DNA of 10,491 nt from the NCBI GenBank assembly GCA_033549025.1, contig JAWSUS010000041.1, forward strand, positions 1 to 10,491, written 5' to 3'. This document shows positions 1-10,491 of this stretch, in pieces. Made by a program: the position numbers and the translations under genes. Each line of letters begins with the position of its first letter. Within the stretch, counting starts at the first letter, position 1. The stretch is from Desulfuromonadales bacterium. GTDB lineage: Bacteria; Desulfobacterota; Desulfuromonadia; Desulfuromonadales; SZUA-540. Under the pieces are notes generated by a model. It did not search any database and had not been told where the DNA came from. It saw only the letters and a list, made by a program, of their open reading frames with translations.

Positions 1-7
1 CGGTCAT
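1..7 (-). CDS. 5' end of a divergently transcribed gene running off the window (product unknown)
   Basis: Minus strand reads AAGGAGGTTGAAA-ATG-ACC: near-perfect Shine-Dalgarno (plus 13-20 acctcctt) with ATG at plus 5-7. Only two codons are visible. Confidence 0.6.
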
Positions 8-92
8 TTTCAACCTCCTTGGACATGGGAATATTATCCCAAATCAGTGTCCAAGAAAACTGGAGCCGCCCCACAGGCTACAAAAGGAAAGG

Positions 93-518
93 TTGCGGCA
101 CTTTGTGAAACTTCTATTCAGTGATTTAAGATCGGGAACATCTGTGAAAAAGCTGCTGCCAGACCTGAGCAAATACCTTTTGGTCAGTGTTTTTGGCACG
201 TTGATTCATTATGGTCTCATGACGGTCCTGATCCAGCAATTTTCTGCAACCGTGTTGCCAGCTTCCACCGCAGGGGCGATAACAGGTGCCCTGATCATTT
301 ATCTTCTGAATTATTTCTGTACCTTTCACAGCCGAAAAAAACACCTGGAGTCAGTGTCCAGGTTTTTTCTTGTCGCCGCTTTGGGGTTGGTCATAAACGG
401 ACTCACCTTAAAAGCTATACTTGGCTGGCTGGGGGGGCACTATCTTATCGCTCAATGCCTTGCCACCGTCGCTGTTTTTGGATTCAGCTTCACCATAAAT
501 CGGACCTGGACGTTCTAA
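93..518 (+). CDS. GtrA-family membrane protein (putative undecaprenyl-phosphate-sugar flippase)
   Basis: About four hydrophobic segments; KYLLVSVFGTLIHYG, YLLNYFCTFHS, RFFLV and INRTWTF follow the GtrA pattern; lies directly upstream of a GT2. The start is uncertain (TTG 93 or in-frame GTG 144). Confidence 0.85.
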   Translation: MRHFVKLLFSDLRSGTSVKKLLPDLSKYLLVSVFGTLIHYGLMTVLIQQFSATVLPASTAGAITGALIIYLLNYFCTFHSRKKHLESVSRFFLVAALGLVINGLTLKAILGWLGGHYLIAQCLATVAVFGFSFTINRTWTF

Positions 519-530
519 AGGAGCCAGAAC

Positions 531-1568
531 ATGAGAAAACCGTCCCTCAACAAAGCGCCAAAGGCTGTTCAGAAAGAAACATTGCTGACGGTTGTGGTGC
601 CGGCCTACAACGAGCAGGAAGTCATCCTTGAATTCCACCGCAGGCTTTCCGCCGCCCTGGAAGAGGCCGACGTAGACCACGCGGAAATCCTCTATGTCAA
701 TGACGGCAGTCGCGACAATACCCTGCCCCTGCTGTTGGAGCTGATGAGAGAGGATCGGCGCATAGAGGTCCTTGATCTGAGCCGAAACTTCGGCAAGGAA
801 GCGGCGATGACGGCCGGGTTGGATCACGCTCAAGGTGATGCGGTGATCATGATCGACGCCGATTTGCAGGATCCGCCGGAACAGATTCCCGACATGGTCA
901 GAGAATGGCGTCAGGGTTTCGATGTGGTTTACATGCGGCGCCTTAGCCGGGAAGGGGAAACCTGGCTGAAAAAGACGACCGCCCGCGCTTTTTATACGCT
1001 CATGGCCCGTGTGAGTCGTGTCAAGGTGCCCGAGAATGTGGGTGATTTCCGCCTACTGAGCCGGCGGGCGGTCGATGCCTTGAAGCAGCTGCCTGAGCGG
1101 ACCCGGTTCATGAAGGGACTTTTCGCCTGGATCGGTTTTCCGGCGAAAGAGGTTCCCTACCACCGCGATCCCCGCTATGCAGGTGTCACCAAGTGGAACT
1201 ACTGGGGATTGTGGAATCTCGCTATCGAAGGAATAACCTCATTTACCGTGGCGCCTCTGAAAATAGCCAGCTACATCGGTTTTCTGACTTCGACGGCGGC
1301 GCTGCTTTACGGACTGTTTGTCCTGACCAAGGCGCTGTTATTCGGCGATCCGGTTCCTGGTTATCCAAGCCTGATGGTCGTGATTCTATTTCTGGGTGGC
1401 CTTCAGCTTCTGGCCATCGGCGTCGTTGGTGAGTACCTTGGGCGAATGTTTCTCGAAACCAAGCAGCGGCCCATTTACCTGGTGAACAGTCACCACCGTA
1501 CAGCCGTCGGGCGGGTTGGCCTGAAACCTTTCGATTTGGCCCGCAGGGAACTTGAGGCGTTATCATGA
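531..1568 (+). CDS. Glycosyltransferase family 2, GtrB/ArnC-like polyprenyl-phosphate glycosyltransferase
   Basis: VVVPAYNEQE, VNDGSRD, SRNFGKEAAMTAGL, IDADLQDPP (DxD), GDFRLLSRR, two C-terminal TM helices, GEYLGR. RBS AAGGAG at 518-523. Confidence 0.95.
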   Translation: MRKPSLNKAPKAVQKETLLTVVVPAYNEQEVILEFHRRLSAALEEADVDHAEILYVNDGSRDNTLPLLLELMREDRRIEVLDLSRNFGKEAAMTAGLDHAQGDAVIMIDADLQDPPEQIPDMVREWRQGFDVVYMRRLSREGETWLKKTTARAFYTLMARVSRVKVPENVGDFRLLSRRAVDALKQLPERTRFMKGLFAWIGFPAKEVPYHRDPRYAGVTKWNYWGLWNLAIEGITSFTVAPLKIASYIGFLTSTAALLYGLFVLTKALLFGDPVPGYPSLMVVILFLGGLQLLAIGVVGEYLGRMFLETKQRPIYLVNSHHRTAVGRVGLKPFDLARRELEALS

Positions 1569-3130
1569 AATTCCAATTGACATCGATTCAACGTAAGGTG
1601 CTCTGGTCGTTGTTCGCGGTGGTAGCGATAGTTCGTTTGTTGTCGCTGGGAAGCTATCCGCTGGCCGACACCACCGAGGCGCGCTATGGCGAAATCGCCC
1701 GGCTTATGGCAGAGACGGGGAATTGGATCACGCCGCAGATTCATCAGGGTGTTCCTTTCTGGGGAAAGCCCCCTTTGTCGACCTGGCTTTCGGCCCTTTC
1801 CATTCGCTTATTTGGAGTGAATGAGTTTGCCATTCGCTTGCCGTCGTTTCTACTGGCTCTTCTTGTTCTCGCCATGGTTTATTTCATCGCCGTCAGACAG
1901 CGTGGGCGAGATTTCGCCCTGGTGGCGACCGTTGTCCTGACCCTCTCGGTTCTTTTCTTCGTCAGCAGTGGGGCGGTCATGACCGATTCCGCCCTGCTTT
2001 TAGGCACGACACTTTCCATGATCGCCTTTTGGCGGATCATGACGTCAGAGGAACTCAGTGCCCTAGTTTGGGGGTATCTCTTTTTTGTCGGTCTGGCAAT
2101 CGGCCTCCTTGCCAAGGGCCCGGTGGCTTTGATTCTTGTCGGGCTGCCAGTGGGGGGCTGGGTCGTCTGGCAAAGACAGTGGGACCAGGTCTGGCACCGC
2201 CTTCCCTGGTTCTCGGGTCTTGCGCTTTGTTTTGCCTTGAGCGCACCCTGGTATTATCTGGCGGAATTAAAAACCCCGGGGTTTCTCGATTATTTCTTGA
2301 TTGGTGAACACTGGAAGCGCTTTATGGTTTCAGGCTGGCAGGGTGATCTTTACGGCAATGCCCACTCTCGGCCCCTTGGGACCATCTGGCTGTACTGGCT
2401 GGCAACAGCGCTGCCGTGGTCCCTGGTTTTGCTCGTCTCTTTTTTCAGGAAAGAGTTCCGACAAAAGGCTGTCTTTTTGCTCCGGCGCCGCGACGGCTGG
2501 GGGGTGTATCTGGTGCTGTGGTCTGTCGCCCCCATGGTGTTTTTCACCTTGGCCGGCAACATTCTGTGGACTTATGTCCTTCCAGGCCTCCCGGCCTTTG
2601 CCTTGCTTGTCGCTGAGTTGATGTTGCCGGGCCAGCCCGAGAGTACGGTAAAAACGATTTCGCCTGATCCTGGTGTCGGGAAAGTGATTGGGATAGCGGT
2701 CACCACCACGCTTTTGTTTGTATCGGCGTGGATGTTGATAGCGGGCCAAATTGTTCCGCCCAGAAAATGCCAAAAGGGACTGATTACAACTTACCAGGCT
2801 GCCCGGGCCGAGTCGGCCGGAGACTTGATCTATCTGTTCAAACGGCCTCACTCTGCCGAGTTCTACTCCCGGGGCCAAGCGATTTTAGTGGAACAGCCCG
2901 CAGAGGTGGAACGGTATTTTCAAAACAGTATCGATGATTACTTCGCGATCAAAAAAGGGGACTTGAAGCGGCTGCCCGCGGAAACTCGCAACCGTGTAAC
3001 AAAGATCGGCGAGTTCAACGGCTACTATCTTTTGAAGGAAAAATCACGTTATGATGAAGAAAAGAATTCCCGGCTTCTCCCGGAAAGCCCTGGGGCTTTC
3101 CGGGAGAAGCCGGAAGTTGGAATCATTTGA
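1565..3130 (+). CDS. ArnT/PMT-family (GT-C fold) integral membrane glycosyltransferase
   Basis: DTTEARYGEIARLM, WITP, FWGKPPLSTW, EFAIRLPS, LLAKGP, PWY, YVLP motifs and many TM segments. ATGA overlap with the GT2 stop. Confidence 0.92.
   Translation: MKFQLTSIQRKVLWSLFAVVAIVRLLSLGSYPLADTTEARYGEIARLMAETGNWITPQIHQGVPFWGKPPLSTWLSALSIRLFGVNEFAIRLPSFLLALLVLAMVYFIAVRQRGRDFALVATVVLTLSVLFFVSSGAVMTDSALLLGTTLSMIAFWRIMTSEELSALVWGYLFFVGLAIGLLAKGPVALILVGLPVGGWVVWQRQWDQVWHRLPWFSGLALCFALSAPWYYLAELKTPGFLDYFLIGEHWKRFMVSGWQGDLYGNAHSRPLGTIWLYWLATALPWSLVLLVSFFRKEFRQKAVFLLRRRDGWGVYLVLWSVAPMVFFTLAGNILWTYVLPGLPAFALLVAELMLPGQPESTVKTISPDPGVGKVIGIAVTTTLLFVSAWMLIAGQIVPPRKCQKGLITTYQAARAESAGDLIYLFKRPHSAEFYSRGQAILVEQPAEVERYFQNSIDDYFAIKKGDLKRLPAETRNRVTKIGEFNGYYLLKEKSRYDEEKNSRLLPESPGAFREKPEVGII
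3070..3113. repeat. Perfect 21-bp inverted repeat with a 2-nt spacer inside the 3' end of the ArnT-like gene
   Basis: ccggcttctcccggaaagccc (3070-3090), tg, gggctttccgggagaagccgg (3093-3113) are exact reverse complements. Confidence 0.95.
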
Positions 3131-3138
3131 GAGGGAGT

Positions 3139-3816
3139 ATGAGAGTTCTGCTTATTGAGGATGACGATCGAACCGCCGACTTTGTTTCCAAGGGGTATCA
3201 ACAAGCCGGGTATGCAGTGGATCGTGCAGCTAACGGGGTAGATGGCTTGTTTATGGCCTCTCATACCCCTTACGATATTGCGGTGATCGATATTATGCTG
3301 CCCCGGCTGGACGGGCTGACGGTTATCGAAAAGCTCCGTGAGCAAAAGCTCAGCCTCCCCATAATTGTCGTGAGTGCGAAAAAGTCCATTGACGACAGAA
3401 TTCTGGGACTTCAATCCGGCAGCGATGACTATCTTGTCAAACCCTTTGCCTTCTCTGAGTTGTTGGCCCGTACCCAGGCCTTGCTGCGCCGGGTCAACCA
3501 TATCGCTGAACCCATGACTCTCCAGGTCGACGACCTGGAGATGGACGTGGTCCGACGCAAAGTTTTTCGCTCCGGTCGCGAAATCGACCTGCAGCATCGG
3601 GAATTCGCCCTGCTCGAGTATCTGATGCGCAACGCTGGCCGGGTCGTTTCCAAGGCCATGATTATGGAGCACGTGTGGGATTATAATTTTGACCCCGAGA
3701 CCAACGTGGTCGAGTCCCGTATTTGCCGCCTGCGTGATAAAATAGATCGTTCTTTTTCGCGTCAGCTCATCCATACGGTGCGTGGCGTCGGTTACCTTCT
3801 TGAGGCCAGGGGGTAG
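3139..3816 (+). CDS. OmpR/PhoB-family response regulator (CusR/CzcR-like)
   Basis: Receiver motifs LLIEDD, IDIMLP (phospho-Asp) and DDYLVKPF; winged helix with REFALLEYL, VW, NVVESRICRLRDKID, IHTVRGVGY. ATG 3139 after GAGGGAG is preferred over TTG 3127. Confidence 0.95.
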   Translation: MRVLLIEDDDRTADFVSKGYQQAGYAVDRAANGVDGLFMASHTPYDIAVIDIMLPRLDGLTVIEKLREQKLSLPIIVVSAKKSIDDRILGLQSGSDDYLVKPFAFSELLARTQALLRRVNHIAEPMTLQVDDLEMDVVRRKVFRSGREIDLQHREFALLEYLMRNAGRVVSKAMIMEHVWDYNFDPETNVVESRICRLRDKIDRSFSRQLIHTVRGVGYLLEARG

Positions 3817-3817
3817 T

Positions 3818-5197
3818 ATGATACGCAGTCTGAGCGTACAGCTGACCCTCCGCTTTCTGGTGCTTTTTACCTTTCTTTTTTTATCGGCGTTCACCTTTGT
3901 CTATTGGCACCTGAAGTCAACTCTGCACGACAAGATTGATGAAACGCTCACCAAGAATGCTTTCGAGATCGCCAAAACTCTTCGGACTGAAGGTCTGAAA
4001 GAAGCGATCAAGGAAGTCCATCTTGAAGCGGAGGCCGAGGGAGTCGGCCGCGTCTTTATTCGCTTTTTTACGCCCGAACAGGAATTGATCACAACTTCGG
4101 ATTTGACAGCATGGTCGGAGCTGAACGTCAAGCCCAGGAAACCGGCCTCGGAAACCGGCCAGGTGTTAGATACTATCACCCTGCCTGGAAGACATCATCA
4201 GGTCCGTCTTCTGCATCAGGGCCTCGACGGAGGGTATCTCCTTCAGATGGGTTTTCTGCTGAAAGAGGATGATCGGCTGCTCGAAGACTTCCGTAGTATT
4301 TTTGCTATCGCATTCGCCATAATGATCCTGGGCGGCGCTCTGTCTGGCTATTTAATTTCCAGGCGGGCCATGAAGGGTGTGGAACGGATCAGGCAAACCG
4401 CCGACCGGATAGGCCAGGGAGACTTTTCTCATCGGGTGGAGCTGGAGAAAGACGGTGAAGAAATCGAGAATTTGGGGCGGGCCTTCAACCAGATGCAGGA
4501 TCGAATCCAGGTTCTCATCGGCGAATTAAAGGATGTCACCAACAATATTGCCCACGACCTGCGAAGTCCTCTGACGAGGATCCGCGGTCTGGCCGAGACG
4601 ACACTGACAGGGAAACAAGAGCTGGCCGAGTACCGGAATATGGCCGGGACAATCATCGAAGAGAGCGACAGGATGGTCGGCATGGTCAACACCATGCTCG
4701 AAATCGCTGAAACCGATGCCGGGATTCGCGAGATCCCAAAAATATCAGTGAATCTGGGGGATATTGTAATCGATGTCGGGGAACTGTTCTCCACTGTTGC
4801 CGAGGATAAGGGGGTCGAGCTCCAGGTTTTGGTCGCTTCCGCGCCTTTATGTGTTCAGGGTGATCGACCCAGGCTGCAAAGGGCTGTCGCCAATCTCCTT
4901 GACAATGCGATTAAATATACTCCAGCGGGGGGAAGGGTGACTATCCAGGCCGAGGCGGAAGGGGCTCAGACCCTTATTTCCATCGCGGATACCGGCATTG
5001 GTATTCCGGCCCAAGAGCAAAAGTCGATCTTTAACCGGTTTTACCGGCTGGACCAGAGCCGCTCCACCCCTGGGGCTGGGTTAGGACTCAGCCTGGTACA
5101 GGCGGTGGTCAGGGCGCACGGCGGAATGGTACAAGTTGAAAGCGAGGTTGGACGGGGTAGCGTCTTTACTATTAGACTGCCGAGGAAACCGATATAA
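3818..5197 (+). CDS. Two-TM HAMP sensor histidine kinase (CusS/CzcS-like)
   Basis: Two TM helices around a periplasmic domain, HAMP (EIENLGRAFNQM), H-box IAHDLRSPL, N-box NLLDNAIKYT, G1 DTGIGI, F-box IFNRFYR, G2 GAGLGLSLV. ATG 3818 lies 1 nt after the regulator stop. Confidence 0.95.
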   Translation: MIRSLSVQLTLRFLVLFTFLFLSAFTFVYWHLKSTLHDKIDETLTKNAFEIAKTLRTEGLKEAIKEVHLEAEAEGVGRVFIRFFTPEQELITTSDLTAWSELNVKPRKPASETGQVLDTITLPGRHHQVRLLHQGLDGGYLLQMGFLLKEDDRLLEDFRSIFAIAFAIMILGGALSGYLISRRAMKGVERIRQTADRIGQGDFSHRVELEKDGEEIENLGRAFNQMQDRIQVLIGELKDVTNNIAHDLRSPLTRIRGLAETTLTGKQELAEYRNMAGTIIEESDRMVGMVNTMLEIAETDAGIREIPKISVNLGDIVIDVGELFSTVAEDKGVELQVLVASAPLCVQGDRPRLQRAVANLLDNAIKYTPAGGRVTIQAEAEGAQTLISIADTGIGIPAQEQKSIFNRFYRLDQSRSTPGAGLGLSLVQAVVRAHGGMVQVESEVGRGSVFTIRLPRKPI

Positions 5198-5238
5198 ATC
5201 AGGCTTGTGTAAAGGGCAAAACACTTGTTTGTTTAATT

Positions 5239-7053
5239 TTATCCATGATGGGTCTGAATAATTTGCTTAAAAGCATCGTAAATTTTTTCGCCAAAAGCGA
5301 TGTGATCCTTGCCTCTATGCTGCATACTCTGTTTAGGATAAGGATAGATAATCCCATCATTATCCCAAACCCCATTGAGTATTGTCGCGGCGGCAACCAT
5401 ATCACGCAAAACGGGAATAGCATCATCGTCAGAATCATAACCTGCAGCAACCAGGAGAAACTTAAATTTGTCGGCAGGCCGCTTTTCAAATTCCAAGAGA
5501 TAGCAAATCCCCTCTTCAAAGTATATTTTAGCTGTAAAAACAATGCGCTTTCGCTTTTTCCTTTTCAAAAGATAAGTGAAGGGGCCAAGTTTACGCTGTT
5601 GATACTCCGTAGGTAGAAAACTTAGGGTGTGCTCCTTGAAAAAGGCCACCAACCCGAATAAGGAGATGGTTTCCCAGCGCCATCTCTTTTCGGCGCTCAA
5701 GCGCTCTAAGTAGTCGATGGTTTTTAGCAACGTCCACGTATTATCCTGGCCATCTGTTTCGTGCTCAGTCTCTAAATTCACCTGGCCTACAGGCCAATCA
5801 TGGCCCTCGGGGTCACCTGTCGACCAAAGTACCTCTGCGGGGTCGAATCTCACCATCGGCGGCGGTGCCCCTTTTCTTCCGATATACTCGTTTTTTGTGT
5901 TAAAGACGCGGGTCAACTTTTTCCGCTGAAGATCTAGGAATTGTCTGACTGGAGTGATGGGATTTGCTCTTATGTTCTGCACCCAGGAAGGGTCATCATG
6001 GTGGGTGTTCCCGAGATCCCAGTCGGTCTTGTCGATAGGTTCCTTCTGTGGACGATTTCCCCCTTCGCTCTGTTTTTTCCCTTCAGGGTTTCCATCTCCT
6101 GGGATTCCGTCATTGTCTCGGTCGTATTCCAAGTCTTCGAAGGGAAATTTCCCAGAACAGCTCAGTATCCTGAAAACCAAAAACCTTCTTTTGCCCATGG
6201 AATGGATGAATTTCCCTTGGAGGGACAATTTGGTCTCGCCTTCAAAAGGGAACTTCGCGACAAGGCTGGGCGGAGCTTCGTTTATGGCGGCCCGTTGGGC
6301 TGTCTTATAGATCGCCCTGGCTTCGAAGTCAGCCTTTTGAGAGAACGCGATTCGAGCAATTACCCAAGCATCAATTCCATCCATAGCGGCGCGCAATCGC
6401 AAGTGGGACAAGCCAGGTTCTTTGGCCGGTCGCATTTCGTTCGGATAGGTCTCGCTGGGATTGTACAGAGGGTTTGAAACCGACTCCATGTCTCCGCGGA
6501 GAATTAGCTTTGATAGTTTGGAGCTCAAGCCATAATAGAAGCGAAAAATCTCAGCACAAGGAATGAGAACGGCTAAAGGGACATTTTTATAGTTAATCGC
6601 AAGAATTTTCCCCAAACGAAAAGCTGAGCCATGCCCGATGAAATGCTCGGCACTTATGAGGTATTTACCGTTTTGACTATAACTGGACGAAACAACCTCG
6701 GTGGTTTCGTCTGAAATGTAAGTAGGAGATAAGTTAATCTTTTCTGGCTGATGCCAGGGTTTGCTTGAAGGTTTCCCGTACTGCCAAAACGAACCGATAT
6801 ACAGCTTAGGAAAGTATCCTACACGAATATTTTCAACCACGGTTTTCTGATGGTCAACGGCATTGTTATGGAAGGGGTCAGGGGAGCGCTTTCGCCAATC
6901 GTCGTGAAGAGGCTTGAATACTACCAATATCCGGGGTTCGGTTTTATGAAGACCGAGTCCACCAAACCAATCCAGACGCCATATGCGACCATCCATTATC
7001 GGCGACAGTTTTTCGCCGCTCCATCTTTGCTCACCTAGAATTGAAAATGCCAT
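5239..7053 (-). CDS. TnsE-like protein (remote homolog of the Tn7 target-selection protein)
   Basis: 604-aa ORF with RBS GAGGG. Its motif series is colinear with Tn7 TnsE as I recall it: PRILVVFKPL~WRIFVWFNPM, LIPCAEIFRFYY~HIPQLELARSLF, TKLSLQGK..FLVFRIL~WKLHVKGR..YLVEEIV, a charged linker, WSTGDP~VSTDEP, RIVFTAKI..CYLLEFE~RVIKAVGV..FVLLEVD, and terminal W...H. Comparison by eye only. Confidence 0.7.
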   Translation of the reverse strand: MAFSILGEQRWSGEKLSPIMDGRIWRLDWFGGLGLHKTEPRILVVFKPLHDDWRKRSPDPFHNNAVDHQKTVVENIRVGYFPKLYIGSFWQYGKPSSKPWHQPEKINLSPTYISDETTEVVSSSYSQNGKYLISAEHFIGHGSAFRLGKILAINYKNVPLAVLIPCAEIFRFYYGLSSKLSKLILRGDMESVSNPLYNPSETYPNEMRPAKEPGLSHLRLRAAMDGIDAWVIARIAFSQKADFEARAIYKTAQRAAINEAPPSLVAKFPFEGETKLSLQGKFIHSMGKRRFLVFRILSCSGKFPFEDLEYDRDNDGIPGDGNPEGKKQSEGGNRPQKEPIDKTDWDLGNTHHDDPSWVQNIRANPITPVRQFLDLQRKKLTRVFNTKNEYIGRKGAPPPMVRFDPAEVLWSTGDPEGHDWPVGQVNLETEHETDGQDNTWTLLKTIDYLERLSAEKRWRWETISLFGLVAFFKEHTLSFLPTEYQQRKLGPFTYLLKRKKRKRIVFTAKIYFEEGICYLLEFEKRPADKFKFLLVAAGYDSDDDAIPVLRDMVAAATILNGVWDNDGIIYPYPKQSMQHRGKDHIAFGEKIYDAFKQIIQTHHG

Positions 7054-7268: not shown

Positions 7269-7487
7269 TCAGCTAGTGTGGCAAGGCCTGCAGCAGTAAA
7301 TGCAACCATTGACCCTTGCCGTGGGCCATTTTTGTTTTGCAAGAGCGACGGCTCCATGACATGACGTGTGAGTTCCAAGATCGATTTGATTCGCTGCGGC
7401 TGGCATAAAAGAACAACCGGTGGAGGCGTTATGAACCTCATGATCTCCGTTTGACTGAGGATTTTTATTTAGGACGAATCTGGGCAT
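7269..7487 (-). CDS. Small Cys/His-rich conserved hypothetical protein (72 aa, probably metal-binding)
   Basis: AGGAG 8 nt before ATG 7487. The sequence N..Q.NGDHEVH...GC..MP...N...LG....C..AV..AK......NGC.YC...CH matches a small uncharacterised protein type I recall from accessory regions. Confidence 0.85.
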   Translation of the reverse strand: MPRFVLNKNPQSNGDHEVHNASTGCSFMPAAANQIDLGTHTSCHGAVALAKQKWPTARVNGCIYCCRPCHTS

Positions 7488-7678
7488 AATTTTGACTCCT
7501 ATAGCGTTCAAGCTAAAGCTTTTTGATTGACGTTGCCGTGGACAGTAAAAGATCCCAGTGCAGGCTGGGCTTCGTTTGCTGTCACCGGGCTCTCATGTCT
7601 TGGGGGTTTGATTTTTGAGGAGTTTTGCAGTTTACGGTGACATGGGTACCTCCTTCGACAATAGCCGCAATTTGCGGG

Positions 7679-7707
7679 TTGCGATGCCGAAGGAGGTGGG
7701 GTATAGT
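7679..7707 (+). promoter_or_regulatory. sigma70-type promoter of a putative antisense RNA
   Basis: TTGCGA (7679-7684), 17 bp, TATAGT (7702-7707). Confidence 0.6.
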
Positions 7708-7713
7708 TGCCAA

Positions 7714-7805
7714 CGTCAAACGCCAGTTGGCCGATTCCCCCTCCTTCGGTCACCATGGTTTTAAGAGCCCCTGCGATGCCCTGCCCGGCAACGTAGGGGC
7801 TTTTT
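7714..7805 (+). ncRNA. Putative ~90-nt cis-antisense (counter-transcribed) RNA
   Basis: Bounded by the promoter above and the terminator below; fully complementary to the 5' leader of the leftward transcript predicted to start near 7806. Start position is inferred. Confidence 0.5.
7763..7805 (+). terminator. Intrinsic terminator
   Basis: agcccctgcgatgcc (7766-7780) pairs with ggcaacgtaggggct (7787-7801), with one G-U and one mismatch, followed by a T run. Confidence 0.8.
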
Positions 7806-7812
7806 CATTGCC

Positions 7813-7840
7813 ACGCTACCATATACGGAAAACCTGTCAA
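7813..7840 (-). promoter_or_regulatory. Leftward sigma70-type promoter
   Basis: Minus strand TTGACA (7840-7835), 16 bp, TAGCGT (7818-7813) with an extended TGn element. Confidence 0.55.
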
Positions 7841-7846
7841 GATAAA

Positions 7847-7894
7847 AACCTATATTTTGTGTTGATCCTAAATTTTAAACACAACATGTAGTGT
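7847..7894. promoter_or_regulatory. Tandem NrdR-box-like operators
   Basis: aacCtAtATtTtGtgt (7847-7862) and acaCaAcATgTaGtgt (7879-7894) both fit acaCwAtATaTwGtgt at the conserved positions; their starts are 32 bp apart. Confidence 0.7.
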
Positions 7895-8018
7895 TTTGGT
7901 AGGGGTTGGTTGGGCCCGAGTTGTGTTTTTGCGCTTTTTCTGGTGCCCCAGTCCTGTAGCTATACAGGTCAAATCCTCTCTCACCCTCAGTCAGCTTTGT
8001 AGACAGAAGCCAGAAACA

Positions 8019-8093
8019 ACCATATCACGACAAGATAGGTGGGAAAATATCAGGAAATTCCCGATAGAGATTCTGGCAAGGATTTGTTATGGT
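8019..8093. promoter_or_regulatory. Palindromic operator TATCAGGAAATTCCCGATA flanked by divergent extended -10 elements
   Basis: Palindrome at 8048-8066; TGnTATGGT on + (8088-8093) and on - (8024-8019), 31 and 33 bp from the dyad centre. Confidence 0.55.
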
Positions 8094-8216
8094 GCGATCC
8101 TTTGTCTTTGGCTTAGGGGGAGAATCCACCTAGAGGGGCAGTTCGCCAAGTCGCAGGTGGAGCCCTTTTGATTTGCTCCCGCCCCTCTGCAAATTTGCAA
8201 TAAAACTGGACACGGG

Positions 8217-8771
8217 ATGATGAAAACAGCACGCCTTTTTCAGTCGGAAAGCGATCTTTACAGCAAAATCCCGACGCTTCTTGACTTATGGGTTGCACGA
8301 GTGGCCAACTCGTTCAGGCTTAGGGAAGAGTCGGCCCAGGGCATAGTCGCGGGGGCCTTTGCCATTACGCTTTTTTGTCATTTTCAGGAAATACTCGATG
8401 ACGCCACATCCTGGCTGGGGATAGAGCGAGGACAGGAGATTGTATCTGCAAACGCCATCGCAAAGAGCCTTGGCGATTTGCGTTCCCGCGATCTGGCTCG
8501 CCTAGGCTACTGGAATGTCGTCGATTTTTGGGCTGGGCCGCTTAGTAACGCCTCTGATGTGGATGTCCGACAATGCCGAAAGGCTGTCGATGCTGCGCTG
8601 TTTCTGGCTCTGTGCCGGGATGGCCTTGCGTTGGCGGAAACCATCGTGAGTTTGGCGCAAGTTCTTGAGAGAGGTGTTCTTTCCGGGGCAGAGGATCGAT
8701 CAATATCAGATATTGTCCGACGGCGTTGTCCAGGGCGATACCCAAGACCTCAGAAACGAAACACGAAATAG
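8217..8771 (+). CDS. Hypothetical protein, 184 aa, probably alpha-helical
   Basis: Longest ORF in the interval, protein-like composition, downstream of the 8048-8093 promoter. RBS is weak and no family was recognised. Confidence 0.6.
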   Translation: MMKTARLFQSESDLYSKIPTLLDLWVARVANSFRLREESAQGIVAGAFAITLFCHFQEILDDATSWLGIERGQEIVSANAIAKSLGDLRSRDLARLGYWNVVDFWAGPLSNASDVDVRQCRKAVDAALFLALCRDGLALAETIVSLAQVLERGVLSGAEDRSISDIVRRRCPGRYPRPQKRNTK

Positions 8772-8796
8772 CCAAATTTCTCCCTAAGGTTTTTTA

Positions 8797-8910
8797 TGTC
8801 GGGAATTTCCTGAGGCGACAGGCATGGTCTGTTGTGCTAGGGTGGCAGAAGGCCATGTTTCCTGAGTTTATTGTGATTTCTTAAAGCCCGACCCCTATGT
8901 TCAGGGAGAG
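8797..8910 (+). repeat. Copy A of a ~110-bp diverged direct repeat (operator + promoter + leader)
   Basis: 22 bp identical to copy B (8802-8823 vs 10202-10223); 42/50 identical over 8801-8850; alignable to about 8910. Contains GCGACA-17-TAGGGT with extended TG. Confidence 0.85.
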
Positions 8911-9094
8911 ATCGAATGTTCAGAAAAGCTGATTTTTGCTGCTGCGCTTTCATTGCGGACATATCTTTTTCTGGCATCAATGTTTGCCACCCCAGACACG
9001 CAGGTTTAAATGGCACCCTCAGGCAGGAAATATCACTGAGACCCGCGCCGGCTAAAGGATGCGGTATGTGCAAGGCATTTAAGCCTCGATAGTC

Positions 9095-9592
9095 ATGAAG
9101 ACCTTTTTATATATTCTCGTTTTCATTGTCCAGGCCGGCTTTGCGGCTGCTCATCCCGGTGGCCTTGATGCCAGCGGTGGCCATTACAAAAGGGCAACAG
9201 GAGAATACCATCTACATCAGGACAAAGACCCCTCCATAAAAACTGCCTCTCTGGTCCAAGATTCACCAGCTCTTTCCGCTGCGGCCCGTGAACTAAAAAT
9301 CAACGATTATTTCCGCTCTGCCAATGAAAAAGTCGGTGCCTTCGATTGCGATCTGGTCATTCACGAGCGAGACGTCTCAACTTCCCTCAAGGCGGTCGTT
9401 AAGGCCCGGGATGGGTATCGCTGCGTGATCTGCGGCAGTACCCACCAGCTTGAAGTCGATCACCGAAGAGCCCTTATGAATGGTGGGGACAATGCCGAAG
9501 GAAACCTCGCAACGCTTTGCGACGACTGCCATACGGCAAAAACGAGGATGGATAATTCGTTGCGGCGGAAGAGGGAGAGAGTTTGCCGTTGA
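9095..9592 (+). CDS. Exported HNH endonuclease-domain protein with an N-terminal YHYH-type motif
   Basis: Signal peptide MKTFLYILVFIVQAGFAAA, then HPGGLDASGGHYKRATGEYHLH; C-terminal RDGYRCVICG..LEVDH..GGDN..NLATLCDDCH (zinc-binding HNH). Confidence 0.85.
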   Translation: MKTFLYILVFIVQAGFAAAHPGGLDASGGHYKRATGEYHLHQDKDPSIKTASLVQDSPALSAAARELKINDYFRSANEKVGAFDCDLVIHERDVSTSLKAVVKARDGYRCVICGSTHQLEVDHRRALMNGGDNAEGNLATLCDDCHTAKTRMDNSLRRKRERVCR

Positions 9593-10152: not shown

Positions 10153-10196
10153 CAGTCAGGCAGGAAAGAAAAGTGTGGCCATCGTGAGCTCATCCA

Positions 10197-10310
10197 TATC
10201 AGGAATTTCCTGAGGCGACAGGCGTGGCTTGGCGTGCTAGGCTGACAGAAAGGGCATATTTTCTGAGTTCTTTGCAATTACTCGAAGTCGAGTCCTGTGC
10301 TCAGAAAGAA
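10197..10310 (+). repeat. Copy B of the diverged direct repeat (operator + promoter + leader)
   Basis: TATCAGGAATTTCCTGAG palindrome followed by GCGACA-17-TAGGCT; exactly 1400 bp from copy A. Confidence 0.85.
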
Positions 10311-10491
10311 AATTCACTCCTGATTTTACTGTGGGAGGCCAGTAGTCACCAAATATGTTTAGCCGCTTCTCTTCTCTCGGAACCTAAGCCTGAATTTGAG
10401 GCGGGCAATAAAGCCTGTAGCGGAACCGGTTCCTTGGACACAAGTTTAGATTATGCCGCCTGACGGATTTCGTCGGGCGACCGGAAGCCGT

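Follow-up and report, generated by a model that had tools for sequence, protein, structure and literature searches.

The window and the element around it

The DNA analysed here (the window; 10,491 nucleotides) is the whole of contig C41 in a 78-contig assembly. Its central feature is a distal tnsE gene of the Tn6022 type on the reverse strand (5239..7053), and the ORF call bears out the 604-aa reading frame given in the preliminary description. The neighbours within the window are also as described there: a convergent histidine kinase gene and, upstream, small genes. The kinase belongs to a cargo operon (93..5197, forward strand) which also encodes a GtrA flippase, a GT2 glycosyltransferase, an ArnT/PMT-like transferase (scoring under the ArnT cut-off) and a response regulator, and whose likely role is regulated surface glycosylation. 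A 44-bp near-perfect inverted repeat (3070-3113) lies in the 3' end of the ArnT-like gene.

The cargo that separates tnsE from the element end (7269..9592) includes a 71-aa Cys-rich ORF (reverse strand) and, on the forward strand, a 184-aa ORF and a YHYH-HNH ORF. The latter is flanked by 110-bp repeats of 76% identity (8796-8904 and 10196-10304). These contain two of the four copies of a near-palindromic 15-mer resembling TCRGGAANTTCCYGA (8050-8064, 8384-8398, 8799-8813 and 10199-10213). An operator or a cassette boundary are candidate readings of these repeats. Elsewhere in the element, contig C61 carries a 159-aa ORF composed of tandem STSQYGG repeats (559-1038, reverse strand). An Rfam search gave no match and promoter and terminator counts were close to shuffle level.

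Both ends of the window are copies of a 1312-bp IS3-family element present 12 times in the genome. Positions 1..73 (forward strand) are the end of one copy, which breaks the assembly, and 10416..10491 (forward strand) the start of the following one. Each is bordered by a 14-bp target duplication: that at 74..87 (forward strand) occurs otherwise only at the end of contig C48 and that at 10402..10415 (forward strand) only on C61, which in turn connects to C7. Left and right IS flanks, 12 of each, can all be paired by unique 14-bp duplications (12/12), and the contig order C11-C48-C41-C61-C7 was set by these duplications rather than by reads. The insertion sequence itself (contig C63) scores above cut-off for NF033516. 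IS3-family target duplications are usually 3-5 bp, much shorter than the 14 bp observed, and 4 of the 12 copies lie within this single transposon.

The preliminary description had called for a genome-wide search for tnsA, tnsB, tnsC, tniQ and element ends. This located the core on C48 and C11 and the ends on C11 and C7, and a single-protein TniQ scan of genome contigs gave no match. The end of C11 carries the 3' half of comM, an element end and the 5' half of tnsA; C48 carries the 3' half of tnsA, tnsB, tnsC and a 375-aa tniQ; and C7 carries the other element end and the 5' half of comM. The comM halves meet at GCGGG, which constitutes a 5-bp duplication. The reconstructed element is 18.6 kb long, or about 23.9 kb including four IS copies. 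tnsE lies approximately 8 kb from tniQ and is convergent with it. The gene had been considered an orphan, separated from any tns core; the duplication chain ties it instead to tnsA (broken), tnsB, tnsC and tniQ, to both element ends and to both comM halves. tnsA is split by one of the IS copies, and this copy of the transposon can probably no longer move, unless it does not need TnsA or receives it from elsewhere.

Family, fold and predicted contacts of the TnsE protein

The preliminary description proposed two domains joined by a charged linker, with similarity to Tn7 TnsE along the whole length. An AlphaFold model built from a 135-row family alignment (pLDDT 87.5) likewise gives two folded domains with a less ordered linker (residues approximately 320-435). 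The C-terminal domain (residues 436-601; 5251..5748, reverse strand) has, by structure comparison, the double-stranded DNA-binding fold of TnsE: it matches the TnsE C-domain crystal structures with Z scores of 14.0, 13.3 and 13.0 (the best, 9d5l_A, with an rmsd of 2.5 over 140 aligned residues), against 5.8 for the next unrelated match. TnsE C-domains were the sole matches with Z>=8 among 48,161 chains and occupied the top seven rows of a Foldseek search with the model. The N-terminal domain, delimited by the model and profile alignment (residues 16-315; 6109..7008, reverse strand), gave only weak matches, to OB/SSB-like folds (RPA, Z about 5).

Profile comparison extends the similarity to the N-domain. 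The family profile matched a 54-sequence Tn7 TnsE profile at 98.3% (hhalign; E 1.6e-14 over 499 columns) and the Acinetobacter Tn6022 TnsE (orf4) at 98.5% over its full length, so that both the profile and the structure checks that had been suggested gave matches to TnsE. A Tn7 profile was required for this, since comparison with the single Tn7 TnsE sequence reached only 3%. Single-sequence searches of Pfam, NCBIfam and the PDB, and a search of PDB sequences with the family profile, returned no TnsE match. With Pfam TnsE_C neither the query nor the control gave a match and the closest homolog reached E 0.024; published Tn6022 TnsEs are, in the part of the source available to us, likewise weakly detected by this model (PMC10293859). 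The ORF has homologs in 839 cluster representatives at E<=0.001, and no TnsE paralog was found in this genome. Judged from these comparisons, the ORF is a TnsE: it adds a member to the Tn6022-type group, and the gene sits at the customary position.

The segment IPQLELARSLF is presumably the clamp site of Tn7 TnsE. The preliminary description had placed IPCAEIFRFYY (residues 164-174; 6532..6564, reverse strand) at the corresponding position, and the two do align in register in the profile-profile comparison. In the model this segment forms a strand-helix (pLDDT about 98). It has CAEIF in place of QLELA, and there is no canonical-like clamp motif anywhere in the query. The glutamine (Q122), invariant in Tn7-type TnsE, is absent throughout the 135-member family, while the proline, glutamate and arginine are retained (98, 94 and 91%, respectively, compared with 100, 100 and 98% in Tn7 types). 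The Acinetobacter TnsE, which carries ITSSIHVLHSLF at the aligned position, also lacks QL; the Tn6022 TnsE is reported to be functional in the portion of PMC11014353 consulted. QL therefore defines only the Tn7 subfamily, and its absence, found family-wide, provides no evidence of a new partner, contrary to the earlier suggestion of a different partner specificity. The accessible part of PMC12153342 attributes clamp binding to the Tn7 TnsE N-domain and does not name the segment itself.

A model of the N-domain (residues 16-315) with the cognate TnsC gave an ipSAE of 0.80 in three runs, the best of three controls giving 0.00. The mark adopted for this score is met by 116 of 157 solved pairs and 2 of 215 mismatched pairs; as our own alignments were used, these counts hold roughly. 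The runs share at least 98% of contacts, with a partner pLDDT of at least 84. Predicted contacts centre on TnsE residues 246-262, the end of a helix (6268..6318, reverse strand) that varies across the family, and on TnsC residues 63-86 and 104-112. The predicted TnsC-contact residues of TnsE are poorly conserved. For TnsE, the PDB searches returned only C-domain entries; solved complexes of TnsC with TniQ or TnsD do exist and the TnsC face in the model may therefore be remembered. How TnsE recruits TnsC is described as 'not known' in the part of PMC11406308 available, and recruitment through DNA remodelling is proposed in that of PMC12153342. Among the titles and abstract openings listed from 2024 on, we found no report of a TnsE-TnsC interface. 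The model supports direct binding between the TnsE N-domain and TnsC as a prediction.

Relatives, attachment genes and the absence of TnsF

TnsE and TniQ of this type occur together in the same 3 of 401 genomes of the phylum, in all cases in comM. The survey of gene neighbourhoods was centred on the best 79 of 190 TniQ relatives (the broad TnsE alignments are too divergent for scanning loci). Within these loci, tnsE lies no more than 10 kb from tniQ in 24 of 79, on the opposite strand in 23 of the 24. Such a survey of homologs had been proposed at the outset, and it places TnsE together with the tns core in relatives. The 3' half of comM is on the tnsA side in 34 of 79 loci, one of which (L064) is the unpublished genome G415. 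In plasmid-borne copies the core is 18-47 kb from tnsE. Three plasmid homologs examined as possible orphans were rejected: two have a distant convergent tniQ and the third, L006, is an IS21-truncated remnant.

Several loci depart from this layout. A small clade (L054, 11482-13137; L114, 10001) shows the Tn7 arrangement, with tnsE following tniQ and on its strand. In one comM element (L037, 11342-12745) a second convergent TniQ of 468 aa occupies the usual tnsE position, and in another (L045, 5820-7442) an apparently intact comM-like gene directly follows tniQ. In L129 and L138 comM is cut elsewhere, beside the tnsE-side end, possibly through adjacent deletions or off-site insertions. The tni module on a group of NDM plasmids (L013, 9577-12954) has a TniQ within the alphaproteobacterial comM-targeting clade; this best plasmid TniQ match has no tnsF and was unusable as a Tn6022 reference.

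TnsF is essential for comM targeting by Tn6022, as stated in the portions of PMC10293859 and PMC11014353 available. In this genome none was detected by tblastn, by genome search or with a three-sequence profile; G041 has a TnsF at 36%. With profiles made from only two to three sequences, no tnsF was found after tniQ in any of the 72 loci that extend 2 kb or more downstream (0/72, among the best 79 of 190 relatives). The sole TnsF match in the 79 loci is on the comM side of L050, outside the element. It is a TnsF-like gene (2700-6437) of a probable second element that interrupts the same comM near Walker B. By eye, the top 40 ORF clusters shared by 16 complete or near-complete TnsF-less elements consist only of tnsA, tnsB, tnsC, tniQ and tnsE frames. 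Data S1 of PMC10293859, as far as available, lists a close member, CP000142, with tnsABC, tniQ, an opposite-strand tnsE and no tnsF label; such loci are thus already within published data, and in the accessible text of that paper we found no discussion of them. We infer that homing in this clade uses a TnsF-independent selector.

Relatives also insert at the 3' ends of lipA and of rlmD. A quick TniQ tree, supported by SH-aLRT only and with most of its backbone unresolved, groups the 24 lipA-type rows in one clade (support 100) and the 12 rlmD-type rows in a second (100), both falling among TnsF-less comM elements from several phyla. The literature listings examined contained no relevant report connecting Tn7 elements with lipA (or lipoyl) or rlmD.

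At all three genes a conserved sequence (the lipA and rlmD 3' ends and the RxPHH codons of comM) lies at the tnsE-side end. Spacing was counted in nucleotides from where the HH/YH codons (YAYCAY) stop up to that end, with the end search limited to 22-48 nt and seven ends placed by eye; L056 (motif not found) was dropped and the unpublished L142 left out. The 25 comM sites gave 32 (13 sites), 33 (seven), 30 (three, including the comM of this genome), 29 and 35; the 24 lipA sites gave 32 (13) and 33-36 (ten), one being uncalled. Two TnsF-bearing elements gave 33. The junction is confirmed by duplications at both ends in nine loci. For rlmD, which came up after the idea of a shared motif had formed, the element end follows the gene, with YAYCAY, in 12 of 12 genomes; spacing by eye is broader, with a mode other than 32 (28-37 nt in 11 and about 23 in one). 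The background frequency of YAYCAY is 0.0019 per position, or about 0.02 per 9-base window. In pairwise profile comparisons shift 0 ranks 1, 1 and 2 of 91, where the rlmD profile has three rows, the sites are non-independent, shift 0 keeps the reading frame and the comM rows were chosen on the RxPHH pattern. In L119, which has TATTGG instead of YAYCAY, insertion is still at 32. Because sites range over 29-35 nt, shifts of 3 bp or 1 bp in comM were discarded as clade markers. Many rlmD-type elements (L169-L179) have, by eye, non-canonical termini (TCC, TAC or TCT, not TGT).

The shared spacing of YAYCAY at comM, lipA and rlmD, mostly 29-36 nt, points to a TnsF-independent selector. From the part of PMC10293859 available, 40-50 bp on either side of the Tn6022 site are needed, and a critical 10 bp is assigned to Walker B and TnsF; the need for both flanks is consistent with the shared motif. 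The TniQ model matches only TniQ/TnsD-N folds, with no classical DNA-binding extension or separate DNA-binding domain identified. Its C-terminal helical tail (337-363) was rejected as a universal reader, as it is missing from lipA-type proteins of approximately 330 aa, a length found in many TniQ relatives. The most likely reader of a homing site that includes YAYCAY is the short TniQ, acting by itself or together with a host factor.

Interpretation and comparison with known systems

We consider the ORF, with a probability of roughly 85%, to be TnsE, the target selector of the plasmid pathway, from a Tn7-like transposon that is related to Tn6022 and inserted in comM. It has the homology and fold of TnsE, and the element in which it lies comprises tnsA-tnsB-tnsC-tniQ and both ends, with a 5-bp duplication. 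By analogy with Tn7 and Tn6022, the C-domain would bind duplex DNA and the N-domain would sense single-strand or 3'-recessed structures on replicating or conjugating DNA and then recruit TnsC, with TnsAB inserting without sequence preference, mostly into conjugative plasmids. The complex model predicts that the N-domain touches TnsC directly via the end of helix 246-262. Chromosomal homing is a separate pathway; in this clade it would proceed TnsF-free, and its candidate site includes YAYCAY, roughly 33-38 bp beyond the element end on the tnsE side. A wider proposal, which we make tentatively and at rather less than even odds, is that of a widespread TnsF-free branch related to Tn6022: homing would need only TnsABC and a short TniQ, which would read one small motif with a YAYCAY core, set at a constant spacing from the element on its transposase-distal side, switches between comM, lipA and rlmD would have come about by moves among unrelated genes sharing the motif, TnsF would be a later addition in Tn6022, and TnsE would contact TnsC through its N-domain helix.

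Two other explanations concern the missing selector. These may be ordinary Tn6022 types whose tnsF was lost once they had inserted, or which rely on TnsF or a different selector provided in trans; homing would then call for no new mechanism. IS remnants after tniQ in this genome, the TnsF-like gene in the same comM as relative L050 and the suggestion, in the available part of PMC10293859, that short-TniQ elements recruit selectors in trans all favour this. Nevertheless, the absence is clade-wide (0/72 assessable loci, in several phyla) and this genome has no TnsF match, making the explanation unlikely. We know of no comM Walker-B site bound by TnsF in lipA or rlmD. Alternatively, TnsE itself could act as, or assist, a sequence-specific homing selector in the TnsF-less clade, which would account for the conserved site (the lipA and rlmD 3' ends and comM RxPHH codons) on the tnsE side. 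The 16 TnsF-less elements share no further gene among their top 40 clusters, direct TnsE-TnsC binding is predicted, and Tn7 TnsE insertions are oriented opposite to those of TnsD (PMC12153342, as far as available). We regard this as still less probable: a complete comM element (L062) has no tnsE and L037 has a second TniQ instead, host genomes, many of which are incomplete, yielded TnsE in only 22 of 30 and 17 of 30 cases, and the attachment sites track TniQ clades. In Tn5053/Tn402 elements, IRi is the transposase-distal end. These elements usually turn IRi toward the target (bioRxiv 2020.12.23.424275, in part), and Tn6022 TnsE inserts randomly (PMC11014353, in part), both of which argue against TnsE as the selector.

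The preliminary description had left a choice between a Tn7-like element with a relocated targeting gene, a remnant and reuse of the TnsE fold by another type of element. Of these, the first holds in that the element is Tn7-like and its targeting gene lies apart from the core. The placement is not peculiar to this locus, since Tn6022-type elements are described as normally having tnsE distal and on the opposite strand (PMC10293859 and PMC11014353, parts available). A true orphan, or a TnsE fold in a non-Tn7 element, could be read from the lack of a tns core within the window and from the truncated plasmid homolog L006, whose replicon has no TniQ. Against this, the chain of duplications connects tnsE with tnsABC-tniQ and with both element ends, and TnsE co-occurs with the core in relatives; together these remove the orphan claim, and we hold either version to be highly improbable.

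The Tn6022 papers already account both for the gene and for where it lies, and the finding as first noted is ordinary. How short-TniQ elements without a visible partner choose their site is an open question in the discussion of PMC10293859 (seen in part); the present clade, with its three attachment genes and a candidate shared motif open to mutation, bears on it. The predicted interface, specific and testable, bears in turn on how TnsE recruits TnsC (PMC11406308). If the proposal is correct, a site-specific integrator made of four proteins and recognising a short motif would be useful for genome engineering across many phyla.

Among known systems, Tn5053/Tn402 resembles this element in its TnsC, which is nearer a Tn5053-like TniB (46%) than the Acinetobacter TnsC (37%), and the target may in both cases be on the transposase-distal side. 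The element differs in having tnsA and tnsE, with no resolvase seen, and in targeting conserved chromosomal genes rather than res sites. With Tn7 TnsE (PDB 5D16, 5D17 and 9D5L) the protein shares the two-domain architecture, the C-domain fold and P-x-x-E-x-x-R in register. Identity is about 11-12%, however, the clamp segment lacks QL, the gene is outside the tns operon and Pfam TnsE_C gave no match to the protein. Unlike glmS-type Tn7, the element has no tnsABCDE operon, long TnsD or glmS site.

The closest likeness is to Tn6022/AbaR. Both are inserted in the glycine (GGG) codons of comM with a 5-bp duplication and with a common orientation, the tnsA end toward Walker B; both have a short TnsA, a TniB-type TnsC and a TniQ of approximately 370 aa; and in both tnsE is on the opposite strand toward the far end, with full-length TnsE homology. 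Identity to the Acinetobacter Tn6022 proteins is 37% for TnsB, 37% for TnsC, 24% for TniQ and 40% and 31% for the TnsA halves. The Tn6022 TnsE directs random insertion into F, as given in the available part of PMC11014353. The present copy lies 3 bp further from Walker B, and it has relatives in lipA and rlmD rather than comM. Whereas in Tn6022 tnsF is in an operon with tniQ, here it is missing, and the element is therefore classed as a Tn6022-related variant rather than as Tn6022.
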